Made by a program: the position numbers and the translations under genes. This document shows positions 22,625 through 36,670 of a stretch of 64,000 nucleotides of DNA, piece by piece. The notes under the pieces were generated by a model that saw only the letters and a list, made by a program, of their open reading frames with translations, was not told the DNA's origin and did no database searches. Origin of the DNA: Capsulimonadales bacterium (GTDB lineage Bacteria > Armatimonadota > Armatimonadia > Armatimonadales > Armatimonadaceae); NCBI GenBank assembly GCA_033762295.1, contig JANRLW010000038.1, positions 1 to 64,000 on the forward strand. Reading direction: 5' to 3'. The stretch's first letter is position 1. Each line of letters begins with the position of its first letter.

Positions 22625-23155
22625 CTAACTCGCCTTACCCGCGCTTTCTCGCGCCTCGATCGCACCACGAACTTTTCGATACGTCTGCTCCAGCGTCTCG
22701 GGCAACACCTTGACCTCGCCGATGACCGGCATAAAATTGGTATCGCCGTTCCAGCGCGGGACGATGTGCAGATGCAGATGCGCCGCAATCCCGGCGCCCG
22801 CCGCACTGCCGACGTTAATCCCGATATTATACCCGTTTGCCCGGTAGACCTCGTCCAGAACCGTCGTCAGGTTCGCGGTCGTCATCATCATCTCCGCGCA
22901 CTCGTCCGGGGTCATCTCGGCCGGGCGGGCGATATGCCGGTACGGAAGCACCATCAGATGCCCGTTGTTGTACGGATAGGCGTTCAAAATGACGAAACAG
23001 GTCGGTCCCCGGTAGACGATGAAGTTTTCCGCATCGTTCTCCTCGCCGGTCTGCGTCGGCTTGTGGCAGAAGATGCAATCCGGGCGCGTCGCGTCGGCGG
23101 CGGGTTTGTTCTCGGTAATATAACTGAGTCGCCAGGGGGCGAAAAGTCGTTCCAC
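22625..23155 (-). CDS. HIT-family protein (Ap4A phosphorylase-like)
   Basis: [23 protein letters not shown] and [10 protein letters not shown]. Confidence 0.92.
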
Positions 23156-23234
23156 GTTTTCGGTGCTCCTGAAGGCGGGAGGGACGATTCTCCCGGTGAT
23201 AGTGTAATCCCCCGCGCCGCTCCCGGCAACTCAC

Positions 23235-23274
23235 TTGACAAATGCCCTATTTTTAGTATATATTTTTATATCAA
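23235..23274 (+). promoter_or_regulatory. sigma70 promoter with conserved box TATATATTTTTATATCAA
   Basis: TTGACA at 23235 and TATATT at 23259; the box recurs at 24540. Confidence 0.7.
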
Positions 23275-23317
23275 TTCGAGCCGACTTCGGTCGGTCTTCG
23301 TCTCATTCGGAGATCGT

Positions 23318-24187
23318 ATGCTCTCAACCTCGAAGCCCTCCCGTCGGGCCGCTTTCACGCTGATCGAGCTGCTCGTCGTGATCGCCATAATCGCGATTCT
23401 GGCGGCTATTCTTTTCCCGGTTTTCGCCCAGGCGCGGGAAAAAGCCCGGCAGACGTCGTGCCTGTCCAACATGAAGCAGATCCTTCTGTCGGAGATCATG
23501 TACACGGGCGACTATGATGAGATGCTGCCTCGCATCCGATACGGCGCAGCCAATAGTAATGTCTACTGGGTGCTGGCGATCGACGATGTTCTCGCGCCGT
23601 ACATCAAGAGCGAGCAGGTCTGGAAATGCCCGTCGGACAGCGTTTCACGGAACGACTGCGATGCGGACGGATGGGGAACGCCGATCAGCTACGCGTTTAC
23701 GTACTATCGCCCCTCGACCGCCCCGCAGAACGGCAACCCGATCGAGGTGCAGTTCGGCGTTCACAGTCTGCACAACGCCAGCGCGGTCAACAACTACGAT
23801 TCGCTGACCCTTCCCGCGATCGGTGCGCCCGCCGAGACGGTCTCCATGTACGAACTGTTCTTCACCGGCAGTTACACCCAGGGCTATCCGTACTACCGGA
23901 ACGATCAGCGCGGCATCGCCTATTCCCAGTTCGAGTTACCGACCTCGTTCGGTCCCGATACCGCGCCGAACGCTCTGCAGACCAACTGGTGCGCTACCGG
24001 GGACGCTCTGATGTCGATCGGAGCGCACAGCGGCATTACCAACTTCGGGTTTCTCGACGGTCACGTCAAGGGAATGCGGCGCAGCGCGTTGATGCCGAAG
24101 GACTGGACGCTGGCCGGGATCGAGGCCCGACGGGCCGCCGGTCAGTCGAACAAGAATCTGATCCACTGGGATTCCCAGTTTAAGTAA
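23318..24187 (+). CDS. DUF1559-type prepilin N-terminal cleavage / H-X9-DG protein (copy 1)
   Basis: [61 protein letters not shown]. Confidence 0.92.
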
Positions 24188-28681: not shown

Positions 28682-28859
28682 GCGGGCGGGCTTCCGGGAA
28701 AAGTTTCCGCCGAATTCCCCCCGGTTCACTCTGTAAAATACCGGTCGTCGTGCCGACAAATAAGATAAGCGACGGCAGGTTTCATTCGCCCTGACCGTCG
28801 TTCGATTCCGATATTTTTACGGGAATTTTCCGGAATGGCAGGCCCGTCGGCAACCGGCG

Positions 28860-28875
28860 TGGCACGGCAGTTGCA
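28860..28875 (+). promoter_or_regulatory. sigma-54 (-24/-12) promoter
   Basis: TGGCAC-GGCAG-TTGCA is an exact match to TGGCAC-N5-TTGCW, in a 450-bp intergenic region and oriented toward the ParB gene. Confidence 0.8.
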
Positions 28876-28934
28876 GGAACAGTTCGCCGTATGGTTCGGG
28901 AAGTGAATCAAAACCAGCACATTAGAAAGTTGAA

Positions 28935-29116
28935 TGCCTGACCAGGCAATCGTGACGAGCGTCCTCGACGGGGTTGCTCGTCTTCGTTCCCCGAATCGCA
29001 TTCCGCGGGCCCGGAGGCAGGACCGTGGTTCACGGGTGGCTTTCCGCCAATGCGAACGGCAGGGTACCGGCGTTGACGAACGTGACGACCGTGGTTTCGG
29101 AAAACGCGACCGTCGT
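28935..29116 (+). ncRNA. Candidate structured 5' leader RNA
   Basis: Helices GACGAGC/GCTCGTC, TCGCATT/AATGCGA, GCGG/CCGC, CCGTG/CACGG and ACGAC/GTCGT between the sigma-54 site and the RBS. No known riboswitch recognised. Confidence 0.3.
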
Positions 29117-29139
29117 GCGGGGTGACGTGGAGGATATCT

Positions 29140-30321
29140 ATGGCTCTTGAACATTTGCCGCTGGAAAAAATTCGTGCCGCGCTGGATCAGCCGCGTAAAA
29201 CGTTCTATCAGGAATCTCTGGAAGAACTGGCCGCCTCCATTAAGGAGCGTGGTGTCCTCGAGCCGATCGTCGTTCGACCGCTGAAGGGCACCGAAGCGGG
29301 AATGTACGAAATTATTATGGGTGAACGGCGGTACCGGGCTTCCCGTCTCGCCGGCAAAACCACCATTCCTGCCATCGTCAAAGAGATGTCCGACGAGGAG
29401 GCGGCGGCGGACGCCCTCCTGGAAAACTTCCAGCGAGAGGATCTCAACCCGCTGGAGAAGGCGCGCGCCGTCGAATCGCTGCTCAAGATCATGAGCTACG
29501 AGAAGGTGTGCAAGGTTCTCGGCGTTTCGGAAACCACGGTGCGCCGGTTGATGGAACTGCTGGAACTGTCGCCTCAGGTACAGCAGGAGCTGGTGCAGCG
29601 TCCGGGCAACCCGGCCAGCAACTTCTCGGAAGGTCATGCTCGCGCCCTGTCCGCCCTCAATGACGACCCGGCCACTCAGGCGCGTCTGATCGCCAAGGTC
29701 AAACAGGAACGGCTCAGTGTCAATGCTCTCGAGCAGATCATCCTCAACCTTCAGAAGTTTCCCTCCAAAAAAGAGGTATTTCTTCGGGTTTCCCATACGG
29801 TCGGTGACCAGATGGTGCGCTCCCTTACCAATCGCGAGGAACGTAAAAAACCGTACCGCGCGCAGACGGCGAAGGAGCATCTGAAGAGCATCGACAAACA
29901 GGCCTGGACACTGACCGATCTGCTGGACGAGCGCATCGTCGAGTACCTGACCCCGGAGGAGATGAACCATCTTCTGGCGATCACGATGCAGGCGACCCGA
30001 CAGATGGAGATCTTCAACCACCGGGTGCGAACCGCCCTGGAAAACCGCACGTTCGGTTTCAAGGAAGTGTACATTCACTGCCCCCTGTGCGGACGTATCG
30101 AACTGATCGGGGCCGTCCGCTGTTCGACCTGCTGGTCGGTGCTTCGCCGTTGTTGCGACTGCGGAAACTTCAATCGGGCAGGCGAGCGTTGCGAACTGTA
30201 CAACCGTGAGGTAAAAGCCGAGGACGCGGAAAATCCGAAGGATACCTCTCCCTCTTTCCGATGCCCCGATTATCGGCCGAAATTTACGCCCAAGCTGATG
30301 AAGATGAAAATGAGCCAGTAA
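29140..30321 (+). CDS. ParB/Spo0J-family CTPase-HTH protein with a C-terminal Cys-rich metal-binding domain
   Basis: QPRKTF, LAASIKERGVLEPIVVR, GERRYRA, LLENFQREDL, HTH and SEGHARAL; C-terminal CPLC-X10-CSTC-X6-CCDC...C...C; GGAGGA RBS. Confidence 0.9.
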   Translation: MALEHLPLEKIRAALDQPRKTFYQESLEELAASIKERGVLEPIVVRPLKGTEAGMYEIIMGERRYRASRLAGKTTIPAIVKEMSDEEAAADALLENFQREDLNPLEKARAVESLLKIMSYEKVCKVLGVSETTVRRLMELLELSPQVQQELVQRPGNPASNFSEGHARALSALNDDPATQARLIAKVKQERLSVNALEQIILNLQKFPSKKEVFLRVSHTVGDQMVRSLTNREERKKPYRAQTAKEHLKSIDKQAWTLTDLLDERIVEYLTPEEMNHLLAITMQATRQMEIFNHRVRTALENRTFGFKEVYIHCPLCGRIELIGAVRCSTCWSVLRRCCDCGNFNRAGERCELYNREVKAEDAENPKDTSPSFRCPDYRPKFTPKLMKMKMSQ

Positions 30322-30390
30322 TGCCCGCCGGCGTTCCGGCAATTCAGGTATGCGTTTCGGGCCGCACGGCACCGTGAACAGGAGCAGCAG

Positions 30391-31347
30391 GTGAACTTCG
30401 CGAAGAAATTGCGGGAAGTCGTCGCATCGAACTTTATTGAAATCGCCAAGACGGAGGAGAACGATGCGTCTCCCCGGAGGACGCCGGATATCGATCGTGT
30501 CTCCCCTCCGGCGTACATGGACGCGCCGCCGCCCCCGCCGGTCGTCCCGCCGGTCGTTCCCGTAACGTCGGAAAGCGGAACGATCGCTCCGGACAACGAC
30601 ACCGACCATCCGGCAAACGAGGTAGCGGCGGAAACCACGACGGTTCCGGAGACGGTCGTTGCCGAACCGGTTCCCGTGTCCGTGGAACCGCCCGTCAGCG
30701 CCCCGGCGCGCCGTAATCTTCTGGCCCTGGTCGCCCCGCACGAGCCGGTGGACCTCGAGAGAATCCTCCAGGAGGCGCGACTGCCCCAGGTCCCCTTCAG
30801 CGCGGAGCAGGCCGCCAAAGTCCTGGCAGCCCTTCCGGCGGACCTTCCGCTTCAGGTCAAGCGCATCACCGTCAAGGCCACCATGGAGGCGGTCGAACGA
30901 ACCCGCGCCATCGAGCCGCAGGAACTGGTCGCCGACGCCATGCTGAAAAAGGCTCACCTCTCCGACTATCGGGAGGAGTTTCACGGGCACGTGGAGGCGC
31001 TTCACCAGGAGACGGACCTGGAAATCGAACGGCTGCAGGCGGAAATCGAGCGGCTGCGACAGTTGAAAGCCTCGTTCGATCGAAAGAAACGGGCGCTGAA
31101 CCAGGCGGCGGACGAACGAATCGCACAGATGGAGCAGGTCATCGTCTTCTTCCAGAGCGAGGTCGCCCAGGAACTGGAGCAGGCGAAACCCCTGACCGTG
31201 GACGACGACGAGGAACTGCCTCCGTTTATGCGCGACGATTCCGTCATGAAAATGCTGGGCATGGAAACCGCCGCGGCCGCCCCGGAAGGCGCGAACAACG
31301 AGGAGGAGCGTCGGCCGCTCGCCAGCGCCGGATCGACCGCCCACTGA
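30391..31347 (+). CDS. Hypothetical protein: amphipathic N-terminus, Pro/acidic disordered linker, helical domain and coiled coil
   Basis: AGGAG RBS and GTG start; heptads LEIERLQAEIERLRQL. Confidence 0.8.
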   Translation: MNFAKKLREVVASNFIEIAKTEENDASPRRTPDIDRVSPPAYMDAPPPPPVVPPVVPVTSESGTIAPDNDTDHPANEVAAETTTVPETVVAEPVPVSVEPPVSAPARRNLLALVAPHEPVDLERILQEARLPQVPFSAEQAAKVLAALPADLPLQVKRITVKATMEAVERTRAIEPQELVADAMLKKAHLSDYREEFHGHVEALHQETDLEIERLQAEIERLRQLKASFDRKKRALNQAADERIAQMEQVIVFFQSEVAQELEQAKPLTVDDDEELPPFMRDDSVMKMLGMETAAAAPEGANNEEERRPLASAGSTAH

Positions 31348-31465
31348 TCGACCCCGGAGGTTCCCTTTTCCCGGGTCGACGGACTATCCGTCGTCCCGAA
31401 ATCAGGAACCTCCCCCCCTCCGGATGCGTAGCAAAAGTAGAGCTTGTTTCCGAGGGCGCCTGACT

Positions 31466-32689
31466 ATGTCCATTTTCCGCCGACGCCGCGCTTTTCCCGG
31501 CATACTGACCGCCATCTTCATCCTTCTTCCGGGGTCACTTCTCCCCGCATCGGTGTTCGCGGGCGACCCTCCGCAGCAGAACGACGCGAAGAAAACCGAA
31601 AAAACCGAAAAGAAGGCCAAACCGCCCGGCGAAGATCCGGAAGTCAAACTCGGTCAGCAGTCGCATGAGGAGATGGTGAAATCGGGCCTCAAACTGATCA
31701 CCGACCCCGCGCTGGTCGCCCGTGTCACCGAGATCGGAAAGAAAATCGCCGCGATCGCCAACACGACGAAGACCGAGGCGACGTATGGCTCCTCGGAACT
31801 CGTCCCCTACGATTACAAATTTTTTATCGTCGACGATCCGGATGTCAACGCCTTTTCGCTTCCCGGTGGCTATATCTATATCAATAAAGGGCTGCTGAAC
31901 TACGTGCAATCCGACGATGAACTGGCGGGCGTCCTCGGTCATGAGATCATTCACGCCGCCCACCATCATGTCGTCCGCCTGCAAAAGGAGCAGAACAAGC
32001 TCAACAATGCCATGTTGATCACCACACTGGCAACCCTTTTCGCCCGGGTTCCGACCGCGGACGCACTGAATGTACTTCAGGGCTTCCAGCTGGTCGCCCT
32101 GCAAAAAGTGAACGGATTCGGTCAGAATGCGGAACGGGATGCCGACCGCGCCGGGCTGATCGTGATGCATAAGGCCGGGTATAACCCGGTCGGGATGCTG
32201 ACGTTCATGGAACGGCTGAGCCGGGACCAGAGACTGCGACCGGATATCGAACTCGGTATTTTCCGCACACACCCGCCGGAAAACGAACGGGCGGACGCTC
32301 TGACCGCTCAGATCAAGGAGCAAAACCTGCCGATCAACCGGCGGGCCGTCACCAAAATGCTCAGGGTGGAGGTTCGAACGGTCGCCCTCAATAAGGATGT
32401 TCAGGCAACCGAAGTGCTCCTCGACAAGCAGATCGTTTACCGCACTCCGTCCGAAGCACGGGCCAGGGAGGCGGCGGATCGTCTCAACCGACTCCTCGAC
32501 CATAACATCCAGTTGTTCGACGTCACGCGCAAGGGCGTTTCCGTTCTGGTGCGCGGCGAAGCCATCTTCACGGTCGGCGCGGCGGACACCGATCTCCCCG
32601 GCAGTCCGTCCGCCGAAAAACTGGCGGAAACCGGCTACAAAAACCTTCGGCTCGCGCTCTACCGCCAGTCGGTCGAAACCAGCTTCTGA
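31466..32689 (+). CDS. Secreted M48-family Zn metalloprotease (BepA-like)
   Basis: VNAFSLPGG, HEIIH, ERDAD and FRTHP. Confidence 0.9.
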   Translation: MSIFRRRRAFPGILTAIFILLPGSLLPASVFAGDPPQQNDAKKTEKTEKKAKPPGEDPEVKLGQQSHEEMVKSGLKLITDPALVARVTEIGKKIAAIANTTKTEATYGSSELVPYDYKFFIVDDPDVNAFSLPGGYIYINKGLLNYVQSDDELAGVLGHEIIHAAHHHVVRLQKEQNKLNNAMLITTLATLFARVPTADALNVLQGFQLVALQKVNGFGQNAERDADRAGLIVMHKAGYNPVGMLTFMERLSRDQRLRPDIELGIFRTHPPENERADALTAQIKEQNLPINRRAVTKMLRVEVRTVALNKDVQATEVLLDKQIVYRTPSEARAREAADRLNRLLDHNIQLFDVTRKGVSVLVRGEAIFTVGAADTDLPGSPSAEKLAETGYKNLRLALYRQSVETSF

Positions 32690-32696
32690 GGAATTC

Positions 32697-33611
32697 ATGA
32701 CCGGCCAGTCGCCGTTCGTTCGTGTGGCCGTGTTCGCCATGCGAACACGTTTTGAAATTCTTCTGTGCGGCGAGGACCGCGAAAGCGACCTTCGCGCGGC
32801 GGGCGAGGAAGCCCTGGAGGAGATCGTCCGTATCGAATCGATGCTGACGGTTCACCGTCCGGACGGCATGCTTCACCGCCTGAACGCGGCCGCCGGCCAG
32901 GGTCCCGTGAGGATCGATTTCCCTCTGCAAACCTTTCTCCGTCGGGCCCTCGATCTGTCGCTGGCGACCGACGGAGCGTTCGATCCGACCGTCGGTCCGC
33001 TGATCGATCTCTGGCGAGGCGCAGGCGAAACCGGAGCGTTTCCCTCCCCTGAAGAGATCGCGGATTGCCGGGCGACCGTGGGTTCGGATAAGGTCCGGCT
33101 CAATGACACCGAGGGCACTCTCGCTCTGCCGGTGCAGGGAGCGCGATTCGACCCGGGAGCCATCGGTAAAGGCTACGCACTCGACCGTGCCGCCTCGTTA
33201 CTGCGAGAGACGGGAGTCCGCTGCGCTTTGCTCCATGGCGGCACTTCCTCGGTGGTTGCGATCGGCGCGCCGCCCGGTTCGCCGGACGGGTGGCCGATCG
33301 CGGTCGGAAATCCGCCCTCCGATTCCGACGCGGTTTATCTGACCGACCGGGCGCTGGGCGTGTCGGGAGTCCACGGGCGGACGTTTCAGGCGGGGCGACG
33401 GTCGTTCGGTCATGTGATCGATCCGCGCTCCGGATATCCGGTCGACCGCTCCGGGCTGGCCGCCTGCCTCCATCCTTCGGCCACGGTGGCGGACGCTCTC
33501 TCCACCGCCCTCCTGGTGGTCGGTGAAGAGGGTCTGCCCGCGCTTTCCGCCCGGTTTCCCGAAGCCCGCTGGATCCTCAAAGCAAGCAAAGCCACGCCCG
33601 GGTCGGACTGA
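32697..33611 (+). CDS. apbE: FAD:protein FMN transferase
   Basis: FDPTVGPL, DPGAIGKGYALD, HVIDPRSG and ADALSTA. Confidence 0.88.
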   Translation: MTGQSPFVRVAVFAMRTRFEILLCGEDRESDLRAAGEEALEEIVRIESMLTVHRPDGMLHRLNAAAGQGPVRIDFPLQTFLRRALDLSLATDGAFDPTVGPLIDLWRGAGETGAFPSPEEIADCRATVGSDKVRLNDTEGTLALPVQGARFDPGAIGKGYALDRAASLLRETGVRCALLHGGTSSVVAIGAPPGSPDGWPIAVGNPPSDSDAVYLTDRALGVSGVHGRTFQAGRRSFGHVIDPRSGYPVDRSGLAACLHPSATVADALSTALLVVGEEGLPALSARFPEARWILKASKATPGSD

Positions 33612-33615
33612 ACGC

Positions 33616-36670
<3,055 letters not shown>

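Follow-up and report, generated by a model that had tools for sequence, protein, structure and literature searches.

The locus raises the question of what a ParB-family protein does when its gene lies downstream of a sigma-54-type promoter box and directly ahead of a gene for a coiled-coil protein, with no ParA gene beside it. A preliminary description of this DNA proposed a conditionally induced ParB clamp that has been repurposed for another job and that works with the coiled-coil protein as its partner. Its mention of Armatimonadota as the phylum agrees with the source names. We considered the locus within the window (the whole 64-kb stretch of DNA analyzed), within its own genome assembly (5.16 Mb and 94.5% complete, with ~5% unassembled), and alongside its relatives. 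On balance, we favor a reading in which this locus supplies the ParB component of a second ParA/ParB-like module, expressed conditionally and specific to one Armatimonadota family.

The first gene (29140..30321, forward strand, with its TAA at 30319-30321) codes for a 393-aa protein (P0002), and a ribosome-binding site, GGAGGA (29129..29134, forward strand), lies 5 nt before the ATG. The protein is the clade A paralogue of a narrow, Armatimonadota-restricted ParB subfamily, for which we coin the name ParB-Cys. A ParB_N CTPase-fold domain (residues 3-98; 29146..29433; Pfam PF02195, E 1.5e-32, 111.9 bits against a cutoff of 26.3) is followed by an HTH_ParB DNA-binding domain (residues 100-205; 29437..29754; PF17762, E 1.8e-16, 60.5 bits against a cutoff of 22.6), and ParB-Cys thus has both hallmarks of the ParB/Spo0J superfamily, ParB_N with GxxRxxA and ENxQRxxL, and HTH_ParB following it. 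The CTP motifs, GERRYRA and ENFQREDL, are intact, and residues G61, E62, R63, R66, A67, E95, N96, Q98, R99, E100, and D101 are invariant in 45 family members. An AF2 model of the protein (pLDDT 82.8) places the first ~200 residues with CTP- and CDP-bound ParB and Noc structures (Foldseek E 4e-16), and with the full model, the matches are confined to this N-terminal ParB part. ParB-Cys is a ParB-family protein with its nucleotide-binding motifs intact, just as the preliminary description had claimed. It starts right at the ParB_N domain with no N-terminal extension, and an LGRGL-type ParA-stimulating peptide, which is present in the genome's canonical ParB, is absent.

The remainder of the protein is of a different kind: in place of the usual ParB C-terminal domain there are a helical stalk, a module in which eight cysteines are invariant (Cys8), and a basic tail, and no Pfam family matches residues 210-393. 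The stalk (residues 219-303; 29794..30048, forward strand; delimited from AF2 models, with a long helix at 272-303) is a candidate dimerization element, judging from the models. Its structural matches are only single long helices and coiled coils, and a wide fold search with a 184-aa C-terminal model (pLDDT 72.9) reached Z 4.9 at best, with only the long helix aligned, which singles out no family and counts against none. The Cys8 module (30076..30264, forward strand), defined by invariant alignment columns, contains C314, C317, C328, C331, C338, C341, C351, and C375, together with H313, which is invariant in the 45 rows of alignment A1 and, in alignment A2 (23 rows), occurs in at least 90% of rows. 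Cys8 probably binds two metal ions, likely zinc. Its similarity to double zinc ribbons is below threshold (DZR_2, 13 bits; Zn_ribbon_6, 17 bits; cutoffs of 25 to 27), and its Atlas structure rows have TM scores of 0.24 to 0.34. The basic tail (30265..30318, forward strand) has conserved Y378, P380, and K381, and then a KLKM-like segment. Of 1.84 billion cluster representatives, only 45 clusters have the combination of a ParB with stalk and Cys8, and Cys8 also occurs elsewhere, either alone or fused to GDPD (glycerophosphodiester phosphodiesterases).

These features bear on whether ParB-Cys could be a Noc-like tether, in which Cys8 and the tail would fasten a CTP-closed clamp on DNA to the membrane or to some other cell structure, so as to organize the nucleoid or to block division over it. 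In favor of this are the portability of Cys8, alone and in GDPD fusions, as for a unit used in targeting or binding, the conserved basic tail, the high rank of Noc structures among the fold matches, and the best NCBIfam match, nucleoid_noc (TIGR04285, E 2.4e-50), albeit at 171.3 bits against a cutoff of 315 and so below the family cutoff. Against this, there is no amphipathic helix ahead of ParB_N, the Noc specificity residues Q173 and R201 correspond to E131 and G165 in ParB-Cys, and membrane binding by the tail is something that we can only infer. We regard a Noc-like tether as improbable.

The DNA-reading residues suggest that the binding site is different as well. Six parS contacts are conserved in ParB and Noc (Q162, G170, K171, S172, N178, and R204 in Caulobacter numbering; PMC7383237), and the ParB-Cys equivalents are Y120, G128, V129, S130, R136, and R168, so that only the G, the S, and the final R are kept, in a register set from the GKSR and GHAR motifs rather than from a Caulobacter alignment. 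The specificity residue R173 (Caulobacter numbering) is E131, and the HTH_ParB recognition helix, GVSETTVRRLMELLEL, has diverged when aligned to solved ParB and Noc structures. Because parS and the Noc site are read by other residues than these, the target of ParB-Cys is likely to be some other site. Exact palindromes of 14 to 18 nt are not over-represented genome-wide, and the upstream gaps of relatives contain no repeat arrays other than mirrored promoter boxes (see below). Short repeats in the window's own gap are weak.

ParB-Cys is not the only ParB in this genome. There are four ParB_N genes, and a canonical parA-parB pair is located on contig C14 with six parS-like sites, so the separate parAB system that the preliminary description called for is present. 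We found no parS-like 16-mer at three or fewer mismatches on the window's own contig (C38), extending the earlier finding that canonical parS is lacking in the window, and a tblastn search of the whole genome gave no ParA-like match on C38. The further claim that neither parA nor a replication gene is nearby is right as to parA and loosely true otherwise, with an NAD-dependent DNA ligase gene at 34298-36670; this, an M48 peptidase, and ApbE make up a housekeeping neighborhood. An 872-aa antisense ORF (28726-31344, reverse strand) overlaps both genes of the locus; it was rejected as a high-GC artifact and set aside because all family matches are on the forward strand.

The promoter box matches the consensus TGGCAC-N5-TTGCW exactly, as the preliminary description reported. 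It reads TGGCAC-N5-TTGCA (TGGCACGGCAGTTGCA; 28860..28875, forward strand), with the GG at 28861-28862 and the GC at 28873-28874 in canonical GG-N10-GC spacing, and is the sole match at one or fewer mismatches in the window. It is on the coding strand, within an intergenic gap of 458 nt, and lies 179 nt past the stop of the upstream ORF (28681) and 264 nt ahead of the ATG at 29140; transcription would be predicted to start near 28886. Listings of sequencing runs for 28700-31400 gave no RNA run and one DNA run, which matched 0.08 of the words. The predicted ~250-nt leader (28876..29139, forward strand) is also as first described; it gives no Rfam match at E values up to 1, and its fold is not unusual (z-score +0.57). 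No Rfam family reaches its gathering score anywhere in the window, and a scan of the forward strand of the gap found no sigma-70-like site.

Taken alone, the box is not above chance genome-wide. There are two exact boxes in the 5.16-Mb genome, compared with ~4 to 5 expected from its base composition (GC 0.623), and 14 relaxed boxes; in the scan of the window, 45 of 100 shuffles gave at least one match at one or fewer mismatches. Four relatives have about as many boxes as matches to a reversed-pattern control (8 versus 9, 2 versus 3, 5 versus 5, and 6 versus 4), and G001 alone is enriched (15 versus 2). The argument for a working promoter depends instead on the relatives, for which we scanned 700 nt upstream of 22 ParB-Cys loci (15 in clade A and 7 in clade B). 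Forward boxes at one or fewer mismatches are present in six of these (the window's own, L075, L076, L077, L078, and L079, in genera g1, g4, and g2), the five besides our own being in g2 and g4 at a comparable distance upstream, against a background rate of 0.0023 per 700 nt (34 such boxes in 10.3 Mb). Two more loci (L080 and L081) have 2-mismatch boxes, and when g7 is left aside, clade A has a box in 6/9 loci at one or fewer mismatches and in 8/9 at two or fewer. None of the seven clade B loci has one within the 700 nt. The leaders of the orthologues are also long, with boxes at -132 to -308, and the upstream flanks of the three genera have no 9-mer in common.

Conservation of the box is partial, and holds for orthologues in g1, g2, and g4; the box is missing from g7 and, of the two g3 genomes, from the orthologue's upstream region in G002. 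In the six g7 orthologues, the gap is short (~100 nt) and contains a sigma-70-like TTGC...CATATA with no box, and the only match in these loci is a 2-mismatch site at -609, within the upstream gene. For two other genes of the genome that carry a box, seven orthologue loci show no conservation of it beyond a single weak 2-mismatch site. G006 and G001 have boxes whose spacers are identical; unrelated genes follow these boxes, in one case beside a transposase-like ORF. Following 2 of the 14 relaxed-box genes defined neither a regulon nor a positive control among other sigma-54 targets.

The genome-wide counts and the boxless g7 orthologues could both be accounted for if the box here were a nonfunctional relic or a chance match ahead of an ordinary, constitutive ParB paralogue with an unrelated neighbor. 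We consider this quite improbable, given that the consensus is matched exactly, in the orientation of the gene, and within a genuine intergenic gap that has no sigma-70-like site on that strand, and that boxes recur in three genera whose flanks have diverged past aligning.

The machinery to use such a promoter is encoded in the genome, as the preliminary description supposed. The rpoN gene is at C53:24171-24620, and there is a single true enhancer-binding protein (C9:28474-29772; Sigma54_activat E 5.2e-68), composed of REC, Sigma54_activat, and AAA_lid with no HTH. Both are family-wide (rpoN in 29 of 32 genomes and the activator in 28 of 32), and their presence thus does not single out the box-bearing genera.

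The second gene, said earlier to begin 69 bp after the first, does so: it encodes a 318-aa protein (P0001; 30391..31347, forward strand) from a GTG located 69 nt after the ParB-Cys TAA. The GTG at 30391 is preceded by AGGAG, and orthologues start at the same residue. In P0001, an invariant peptide at the N terminus is accompanied by a linker rich in Pro and Ala, a conserved domain (~118-200), a coiled coil, and the motif ELPPFMRDD; the protein belongs to no Pfam family, and its homologues are only hypothetical proteins. Past the stop codon lies a GC-rich hairpin without a U-tract (31372..31398, forward strand; -23.8 kcal/mol, z -1.61), which is equaled by 12 of 200 shuffles, was missed by the terminator scan, and is a weak candidate for the operon end.

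How far the two genes belong together is suggested by their linkage in relatives. The coiled-coil gene is downstream of ParB-Cys at 10 of the 15 clade A loci and at none of the 7 clade B loci, such that the pair is conserved in only a part of clade A; the gene also follows a third paralogue in G006. The family has several unlinked paralogues per genome, and in g2 and in G013 the closest copy is located elsewhere. A multicopy, mostly unlinked family would also suit the interpretation of a relic box with an unrelated neighbor. A complex prediction for ParB-Cys (A1) with the coiled-coil protein (A3) scored 0.00 against a mark of 0.32; it was run without controls and counts neither way.

The window gene is a family-specific duplicate, and every locus that has a box or a linked coiled-coil gene belongs to one 18-row clade (SH-aLRT 100, in a quick version of the tree). 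It is in this clade that a ParA appears. ParA2 is a 257-aa ParA-type ATPase with KGGVGKTT, whose best NCBIfam match is ParA_partition (E 1.1e-33), and in g2 and g4 it lies next to ParB-Cys in divergent orientation. In four of six loci, a box at one or fewer mismatches is present on the reverse strand ~285 to 320 nt upstream of ParA2; in g2, two sigma-54 boxes face away from each other, ~52 nt apart, and g4 has the whole set, with ParA2 and its box on one side and a second box, ParB-Cys, and the coiled-coil gene on the other. Copies of ParA2 at 83% or greater identity occur in 8 of the 32 family genomes (4/4 in g2, 2/2 in g4, and 2/2 in g3), and in the g3 genome G002, ParA2 is 9 kb from ParB-Cys. 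No ParA is near ParB-Cys in g7. In the window's own genome (94.5% complete), we did not find ParA2, the best match being the canonical ParA at 39 to 40% identity, and ParA2 has here been lost or is unassembled. A single-protein search of a contig collection returned only unrelated ParBs.

Because ParA2 is divergently paired with ParB-Cys in g2 and g4, we read the locus as part of a second ParA/ParB-like module rather than as a stand-alone ParB. The description of this ParB as an orphan therefore fits this genome, but not g2 and g4, where the orthologue has its ParA2, nor g3, which carries one. The broader proposal of a conditionally induced, repurposed clamp is supported in part, by rpoN, the activator, the separate parAB, and a box conserved in three genera, and is corrected as to its stand-alone character and as to the gene pair and the box, neither of which all orthologues keep.

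Two other interpretations bear on this module. In the first, the main job of ParB-Cys would be to regulate transcription in the manner of KorB, BisD, or VirB, as a CTP-gated clamp that loads at a few sites and silences or activates distant promoters with no cargo being positioned, and the coiled-coil protein would be a clamp-locking partner or coregulator. The intact CTPase and HTH with changed parS-reading residues, the lack of a nearby ParA both in this genome and in g7, and the presence of KorB among the matches (Foldseek E 3.8e-13; phmmer E 5.6e-15) would all be in keeping with this, and ParB-like regulators of this kind are already known. We nonetheless think it unlikely, since pairing with a ParA-type ATPase under mirrored promoters in g2 and g4 is a hallmark of a positioning pair, and a repeated operator-like site was not found in the gaps; KorB itself also partitions, so that both roles can coexist. 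In the second, ParA2, ParB-Cys, and the coiled-coil protein would serve an integrated plasmid or other mobile element in partition, and the window would contain a decayed remnant of the set. Plasmids and integrative elements typically carry secondary ParAB pairs, and ParA2 is patchily distributed, but ParB-Cys is inherited within the phylum with a clade structure that tracks genera, its neighbors are housekeeping genes, and no integrase, relaxase, or repeats were seen around the locus in the part of the window annotated; such an origin is very improbable. The absence of ParA2 here would also be in keeping with a relic box.

For the favored ParA/ParB-like module, a plausible course of events would begin with transcription from the sigma-54 promoter at 28860-28875, presumably activated by the one enhancer-binding protein of the genome; as this is a response regulator that lacks a DNA-binding domain, induction would depend on a two-component signal. 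The mRNA would have the ~250-nt leader and probably span both genes. ParB-Cys would then close into a clamp on DNA, with the stalk, Cys8, and tail holding the dimer together and attaching it to a partner or cell structure, for which the coiled-coil protein, from gene order, is a likely adaptor. The ancestral order may have been that of g4, with ParA2 and ParB-Cys divergently transcribed from the two boxes and the coiled-coil gene last. We suggest tentatively that ParB-Cys is a phylum-specific branch of the ParB CTP-switch family, with a two-metal cysteine module in place of the usual dimerization domain, and that its clade A copy acts with ParA2 and the coiled-coil protein as a machine for positioning or anchoring DNA. 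The cell's only sigma-54 activator would switch this machine on, a two-component system would thereby remodel chromosome or nucleoid organization, and in this genome ParB-Cys and the coiled-coil protein would work without a ParA motor. Because ParA2 was not found, the positioning model would lack its motor in this genome, unless ParA2 is in the unassembled ~5%.

The study of ParB-type CTP switches is young, and almost every case examined is a partition protein, Noc, or a regulator from a plasmid or mobile element. We have not found in print a ParB with a stalk and eight-cysteine C-terminal architecture, a ParA/ParB-like pair behind mirrored sigma-54 boxes, or a natural series of genomes keeping different subsets of ParA2, the box, and the coiled-coil gene. 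The main text of a 2025 survey (PMC12704722) contains none of the terms 'Armatimonad', 'ribbon', or 'coiled', although its supplements may list the architecture. Once worked out, the function would show what a ParB clamp can do with its dimer and anchor end swapped, and would give a concrete target for the single sigma-54 activator of these bacteria; should this be an ordinary second partition system, its interest would be modest.

Among known systems, the chromosomal ParB/Spo0J proteins (Thermus thermophilus Spo0J, 1VZ0; Bacillus subtilis Spo0J, 6SDK; Myxococcus ParB, 7BNK) share the ParB_N fold and HTH_ParB with ParB-Cys, at 37 to 42% identity over the first ~200 residues and with GERRxRA and ENxQRxDL intact. 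Unlike them, ParB-Cys has no ParA-stimulating peptide and, in this genome, no adjoining parA or nearby parS, three parS contacts and R173 are changed, and the usual C-terminal dimerization domain is replaced. Noc of the Bacillota (7NFU, 7OL9) is likewise a ParB paralogue beside a canonical ParB, a CTP switch in which an extra part ties DNA to another structure; in ParB-Cys, the added part is C-terminal, the N-terminal amphipathic helix is lacking, and the phylum is another. KorB (RK2), BisD (ICEclc), and VirB (Shigella) are ParB-like CTP clamps that regulate transcription, a use of the ParB fold other than chromosome segregation, in which a small partner may lock or modulate the clamp (fold match 8QA9). 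They are found on plasmids or mobile elements, whereas ParB-Cys is chromosomal and phylum-restricted, has no KorA-like partner here, and differs in C-terminal architecture. PadC of Myxococcus xanthus (6RYK; a weak fold match, E 4.4e-6) is a ParB-like adaptor linking ParA to bactofilins, and resembles ParB-Cys in that a ParB-like domain acts in a positioning system with a ParA and a filament or coiled scaffold. There is no bactofilin in the ParB-Cys locus, and PadC is not known to have an HTH_ParB arrangement of the ParB-Cys kind. As to expression, no printed case of a sigma-54-dependent parA/parB pair was found in the literature. Sigma-54 activators without a DNA-binding domain include FlgR of Helicobacter and CtcC of Chlamydia, and like these, the present system has a single REC-AAA+ activator with no HTH, together with a box of canonical GG-N10-GC spacing.

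The ParB gene of the locus, P0002, lies at 29140-30321 on the forward strand, with GGAGGA ahead of its ATG, and encodes a 393-aa protein (here ParB-Cys) matching ParB_N (E 1.5e-32) and HTH_ParB (E 1.8e-16). It carries both GERRYRA and ENFQREDL, in agreement with the preliminary description of a ParB with intact CTP-binding motifs. The exact sigma-54 site reported there is also present, as a sequence match (TGGCACGGCAGTTGCA, forward strand, 28860-28875) that is the sole one in the window even at one mismatch, and which sits in a 458-nt gap between the end of the upstream ORF (28681) and the ATG at 29140. The second gene, P0001 (318 aa, forward strand), begins as described 69 nt past the ParB-Cys stop, at a GTG (30391) preceded by AGGAG, and its orthologues start at the same residue. 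Neither a ParA-like coding sequence nor a parS-like 16-mer within three mismatches was found on contig C38, to which the window belongs, bearing out the earlier statement that parA is lacking nearby and canonical parS in the window. An 872-aa antisense ORF spanning both genes (reverse strand, 28726-31344) was set aside as a high-GC by-product, because every family match falls on the forward strand. Genes elsewhere in the window, for a prepilin-type N_methyl and DUF1559 protein (22766-24187), an M48 peptidase (31424-32689), ApbE (32397-33611), and an NAD-dependent DNA ligase (34298-36670), have no evident tie to the ParB locus.

Taken by itself, the sigma-54-type box is not beyond chance. At least one match with up to one mismatch occurs in 45 of 100 shuffles of the window, and the whole 5.16-Mb genome has only two exact boxes, versus about four to five expected from base composition. 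Counts of the box pattern against a reversed control are unremarkable in four of five relatives tested (8 versus 9, 2 versus 3, 5 versus 5, and 6 versus 4); the sole excess is in genome G001, with 15 TGGCAY-N5-TTGCA boxes versus 2, which would make it the best genome for defining the family's sigma-54 regulon. These counts would suit a nonfunctional box ahead of an ordinary paralogue, an explanation that we consider quite improbable; what speaks for the box is its conservation, as judged from related loci. We scanned 700 nt upstream of 22 loci encoding ParB-Cys relatives, scoring forward-strand boxes with GG and GC cores intact and no more than one mismatch. Such boxes are present at six loci, the window and five from sister genera g4 and g2, at −187 to −308, with two-mismatch boxes in two further loci (G018 and G013); the background in the window's own genome is 34 per 10.3 Mb counted on both strands, equivalent to 0.0023 per 700 nt. 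The other paralogue has no box within 700 nt at any of seven loci, and the box is absent from the short upstream gap of six loci in a further genus, g7. No 9-mer is common to the upstream gaps of the three box-bearing genera, suggesting that the box was kept while its surroundings drifted. Two other genes of the own genome that lie behind a relaxed box have a conserved one in none of seven orthologue loci, bar one weak two-mismatch site.

Among the checks proposed in the preliminary description, conservation of the −24/−12 element holds across the window's genus, g4, and g2, and rpoN is present in the own genome. Exactly one true enhancer-binding protein is encoded there, a response regulator of 432 aa that has a sigma-54 interaction domain and AAA lid but lacks a DNA-binding domain. 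No sigma-70-like site was found on the forward strand of the 458-nt gap. Overall, we think it likely that a working sigma-54 promoter lies at 28860-28875. The activator gene (REC-AAA+) and an adjoining 483-aa ORF that may encode its kinase lie within G000:C9:28474-31237 (L095), and in genome G006 the orthologous activator is only about 6 kb from the clade-A ParB-Cys locus. G006 also has a box-like 16-mer, TGGCATGAATCTTGCA, 13 nt ahead of a small zinc-finger, transposase-like ORF (L143:145-426, contig C13), which recurs in G001 and as near-copies in the own genome (C9:83793 and C66:2786); these copies resemble the ends of insertion sequences and not promoters. A genome-wide count of exact palindromes is topped by a set of overlapping 16-nt palindromes with a 12-nt period (CCGGAATCGATTCCGG; G000:C11:11147-11186).

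The window gene is an extra ParB, as the preliminary description had supposed, because the genome has a canonical ParA-ParB pair on contig C14, surrounded by six parS-like sites, and further ParB copies. In a quick maximum-likelihood tree, 43 ParB-Cys sequences split into two groups: clade A (18 rows, SH-aLRT 100), which includes the window gene and is confined to its family, and a second group holding the genome's other copy (C6:62592-63776) and single copies from other families. Most genomes of the window's family have two ParB-Cys copies, and its clade-B copies sit back-to-back with a DUF4446 gene. In the own genome (G000:C6:60502-63776, L103) this copy is 394 aa and about 65% identical, with an ECF sigma factor and zf-HC2 anti-sigma next on the opposite strand; the DUF4446 pairing is seen again in four relatives (L090, L091, L092, and L094). 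A fourth ParB-like gene (G000:C20:~66085-66984; L104:5129-6985) near a contig end has ParB_N and HTH_ParB without the cysteine domain, and the start of the 618-aa ORF listed for it was probably called too far upstream. The C-terminal part of ParB-Cys finds 295 proteins in a 90%-clustered collection, the named sources being all Armatimonadota save one MAG record labeled Fibrella sp. (NCBI), and is present in 47 of the 151 genomes sampled from the phylum and 22 of 32 of the window's family; only 45 clusters came up when 1.84 billion representatives were searched with a profile.

The first ~205 residues of ParB-Cys are standard ParB, with 37 to 42% identity to Spo0J, ParB, and Noc chains of known structure; an AF2 model of the protein (pLDDT 82.8) matches CTP- and CDP-bound ParB and Noc (E ~4e-16), and the nucleotide-binding residues are invariant among 45 aligned family members. 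The recognition helix is altered, from G-K-(S/A/G)-(R/Q)-x-x-(V/I)-A-N-x-L-R-L-L in solved ParB and Noc to G-V-S-E-T-T-V-R-R-L-M-E-L-L in this family. Of the parS contacts listed by Jalal et al. 2020 (PMC7383237, section 10) as conserved in both ParB and Noc, ParB-Cys keeps only G170, S172, and R204, in a register set via the GKSR and GHAR motifs, not by direct Caulobacter alignment; Q162, K171, and N178 are changed to Y120, V129, and R136, and specificity residue R173 to E131. We infer from these changes that the DNA target is noncanonical, and that ParB-Cys would not bind parS or the Noc site in the usual manner. A Noc-like tether, for which the structural likeness to Noc might speak, is unlikely. 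A regulator like KorB, BisD, or VirB is a possible though doubtful reading of a clamp with a changed target; members in sister genera are paired with a ParA.

Residues 210 to 393 match no Pfam family. They comprise a helical stalk (long helix, 272-303), a module of eight invariant cysteines in the alignment (Cys8: C314, C317, C328, C331, C338, C341, C351, and C375) with a near-invariant H313 ahead, and a conserved basic tail C-terminal to it. The Cys8 module is an independent unit, to judge by its distribution: elsewhere in the Armatimonadota it is found as stand-alone proteins or ORFs of 70 to 110 aa (genome G162 has up to five matches, four being short stand-alone ORFs) and as the N terminus of glycerophosphodiester phosphodiesterases (L121:2420-3679 and L122:2227-3507; P0178 and P0179; GDPD E 4e-35 to 1e-43). 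Similarity to double zinc ribbons is sub-threshold only, and a wide fold search with the C-terminal part aligned the long helix alone.

The preliminary description called this ParB an orphan, which stands insofar as no ParA partner was found in the own genome, but not for its sister genera. In g2 (four genomes) and g4 (two genomes), the gene divergent from clade-A ParB-Cys encodes a 257-aa ParA-type ATPase with KGGVGKTT (ParA2), the copies being 90 to 99% identical to each other and only 39 to 40% to canonical ParA. Reverse-strand boxes (≤1 mismatch) lie about 285 to 320 nt upstream of ParA2 in four of these six loci, and in g2 the forward and reverse boxes are divergent, separated by about 52 nt. 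In a further genus, g3, ParA2 is 9 kb off (G002) or on a separate contig (G013), with no box there. ParA2 was not found in g7 or the own genome and is certainly not adjacent to the window ParB-Cys, but could be in an unassembled part, since the assembly is 94.5% complete. The full set of ParA2, mirrored boxes, ParB-Cys, and coiled-coil gene is held by g4; on the most parsimonious account, clade A started out from a g4-like arrangement, followed by losses of the linked coiled-coil gene in g2, the box and ParA2 in g7, and ParA2 in the own genome. Such patchiness might also be taken for a mobile-element remnant, a reading to which we give hardly any credence.

P0001 matches no Pfam family and its relatives are hypothetical proteins only. 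Its alignment has an invariant N-terminal peptide (K6, L7, V10, V11, N14, F15, E17, and I18), then a variable Pro/Ala/Glu-rich linker, a conserved domain at ~118-200, a coiled coil, and an ELPPFMRDD motif. The core domain is a multicopy family (27 of 41 relatives, up to five copies per genome), and those of its copies that are unlinked lack a box themselves. The two-gene pair of the preliminary description is conserved in part: 10 of 15 clade-A loci have a copy directly 3' of ParB-Cys, and the other five have none there, nor does any of seven clade-B loci; one also follows a divergent third paralogue in G006. Gene order is fair evidence for a functional tie, which need not imply binding.

We lean towards a signal-induced sigma-54 ParB-Cys clamp module with a coiled-coil partner, and with ParA2 where present. 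It builds on these observations: the ParB CTPase fold and HTH are intact, the box is conserved, the one activator has no DNA-binding domain, sister genera have a dedicated ParA, and the C-terminal architecture is new. A two-component signal would act through the response-regulator activator to open the sigma-54 promoter, giving a transcript in which a long leader precedes both genes; ParB-Cys would dimerize via its stalk, load on a DNA site, and close into a CTP-dependent clamp. The Cys8 module and basic tail may bind metal and attach to the coiled-coil protein or a cell structure, and ParA2 may move or space the complex. Full-text literature searches returned no paper on ParB in Armatimonadota bearing on this locus, and nothing on ParB-like CTP switches with sigma-54, ParB CTPases with a zinc ribbon, or RpoN-dependent parA/parB promoters; the main text of a 2025 survey of ParB-CTPase domain fusions (PMC12704722) is silent on Armatimonadota, ribbons, and coiled coils. 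Set against known systems, and as far as these searches reach, what is new here is a CTP switch of the ParB family whose C-terminal end is new and whose control is unusual, inside a second ParA/ParB-like module.
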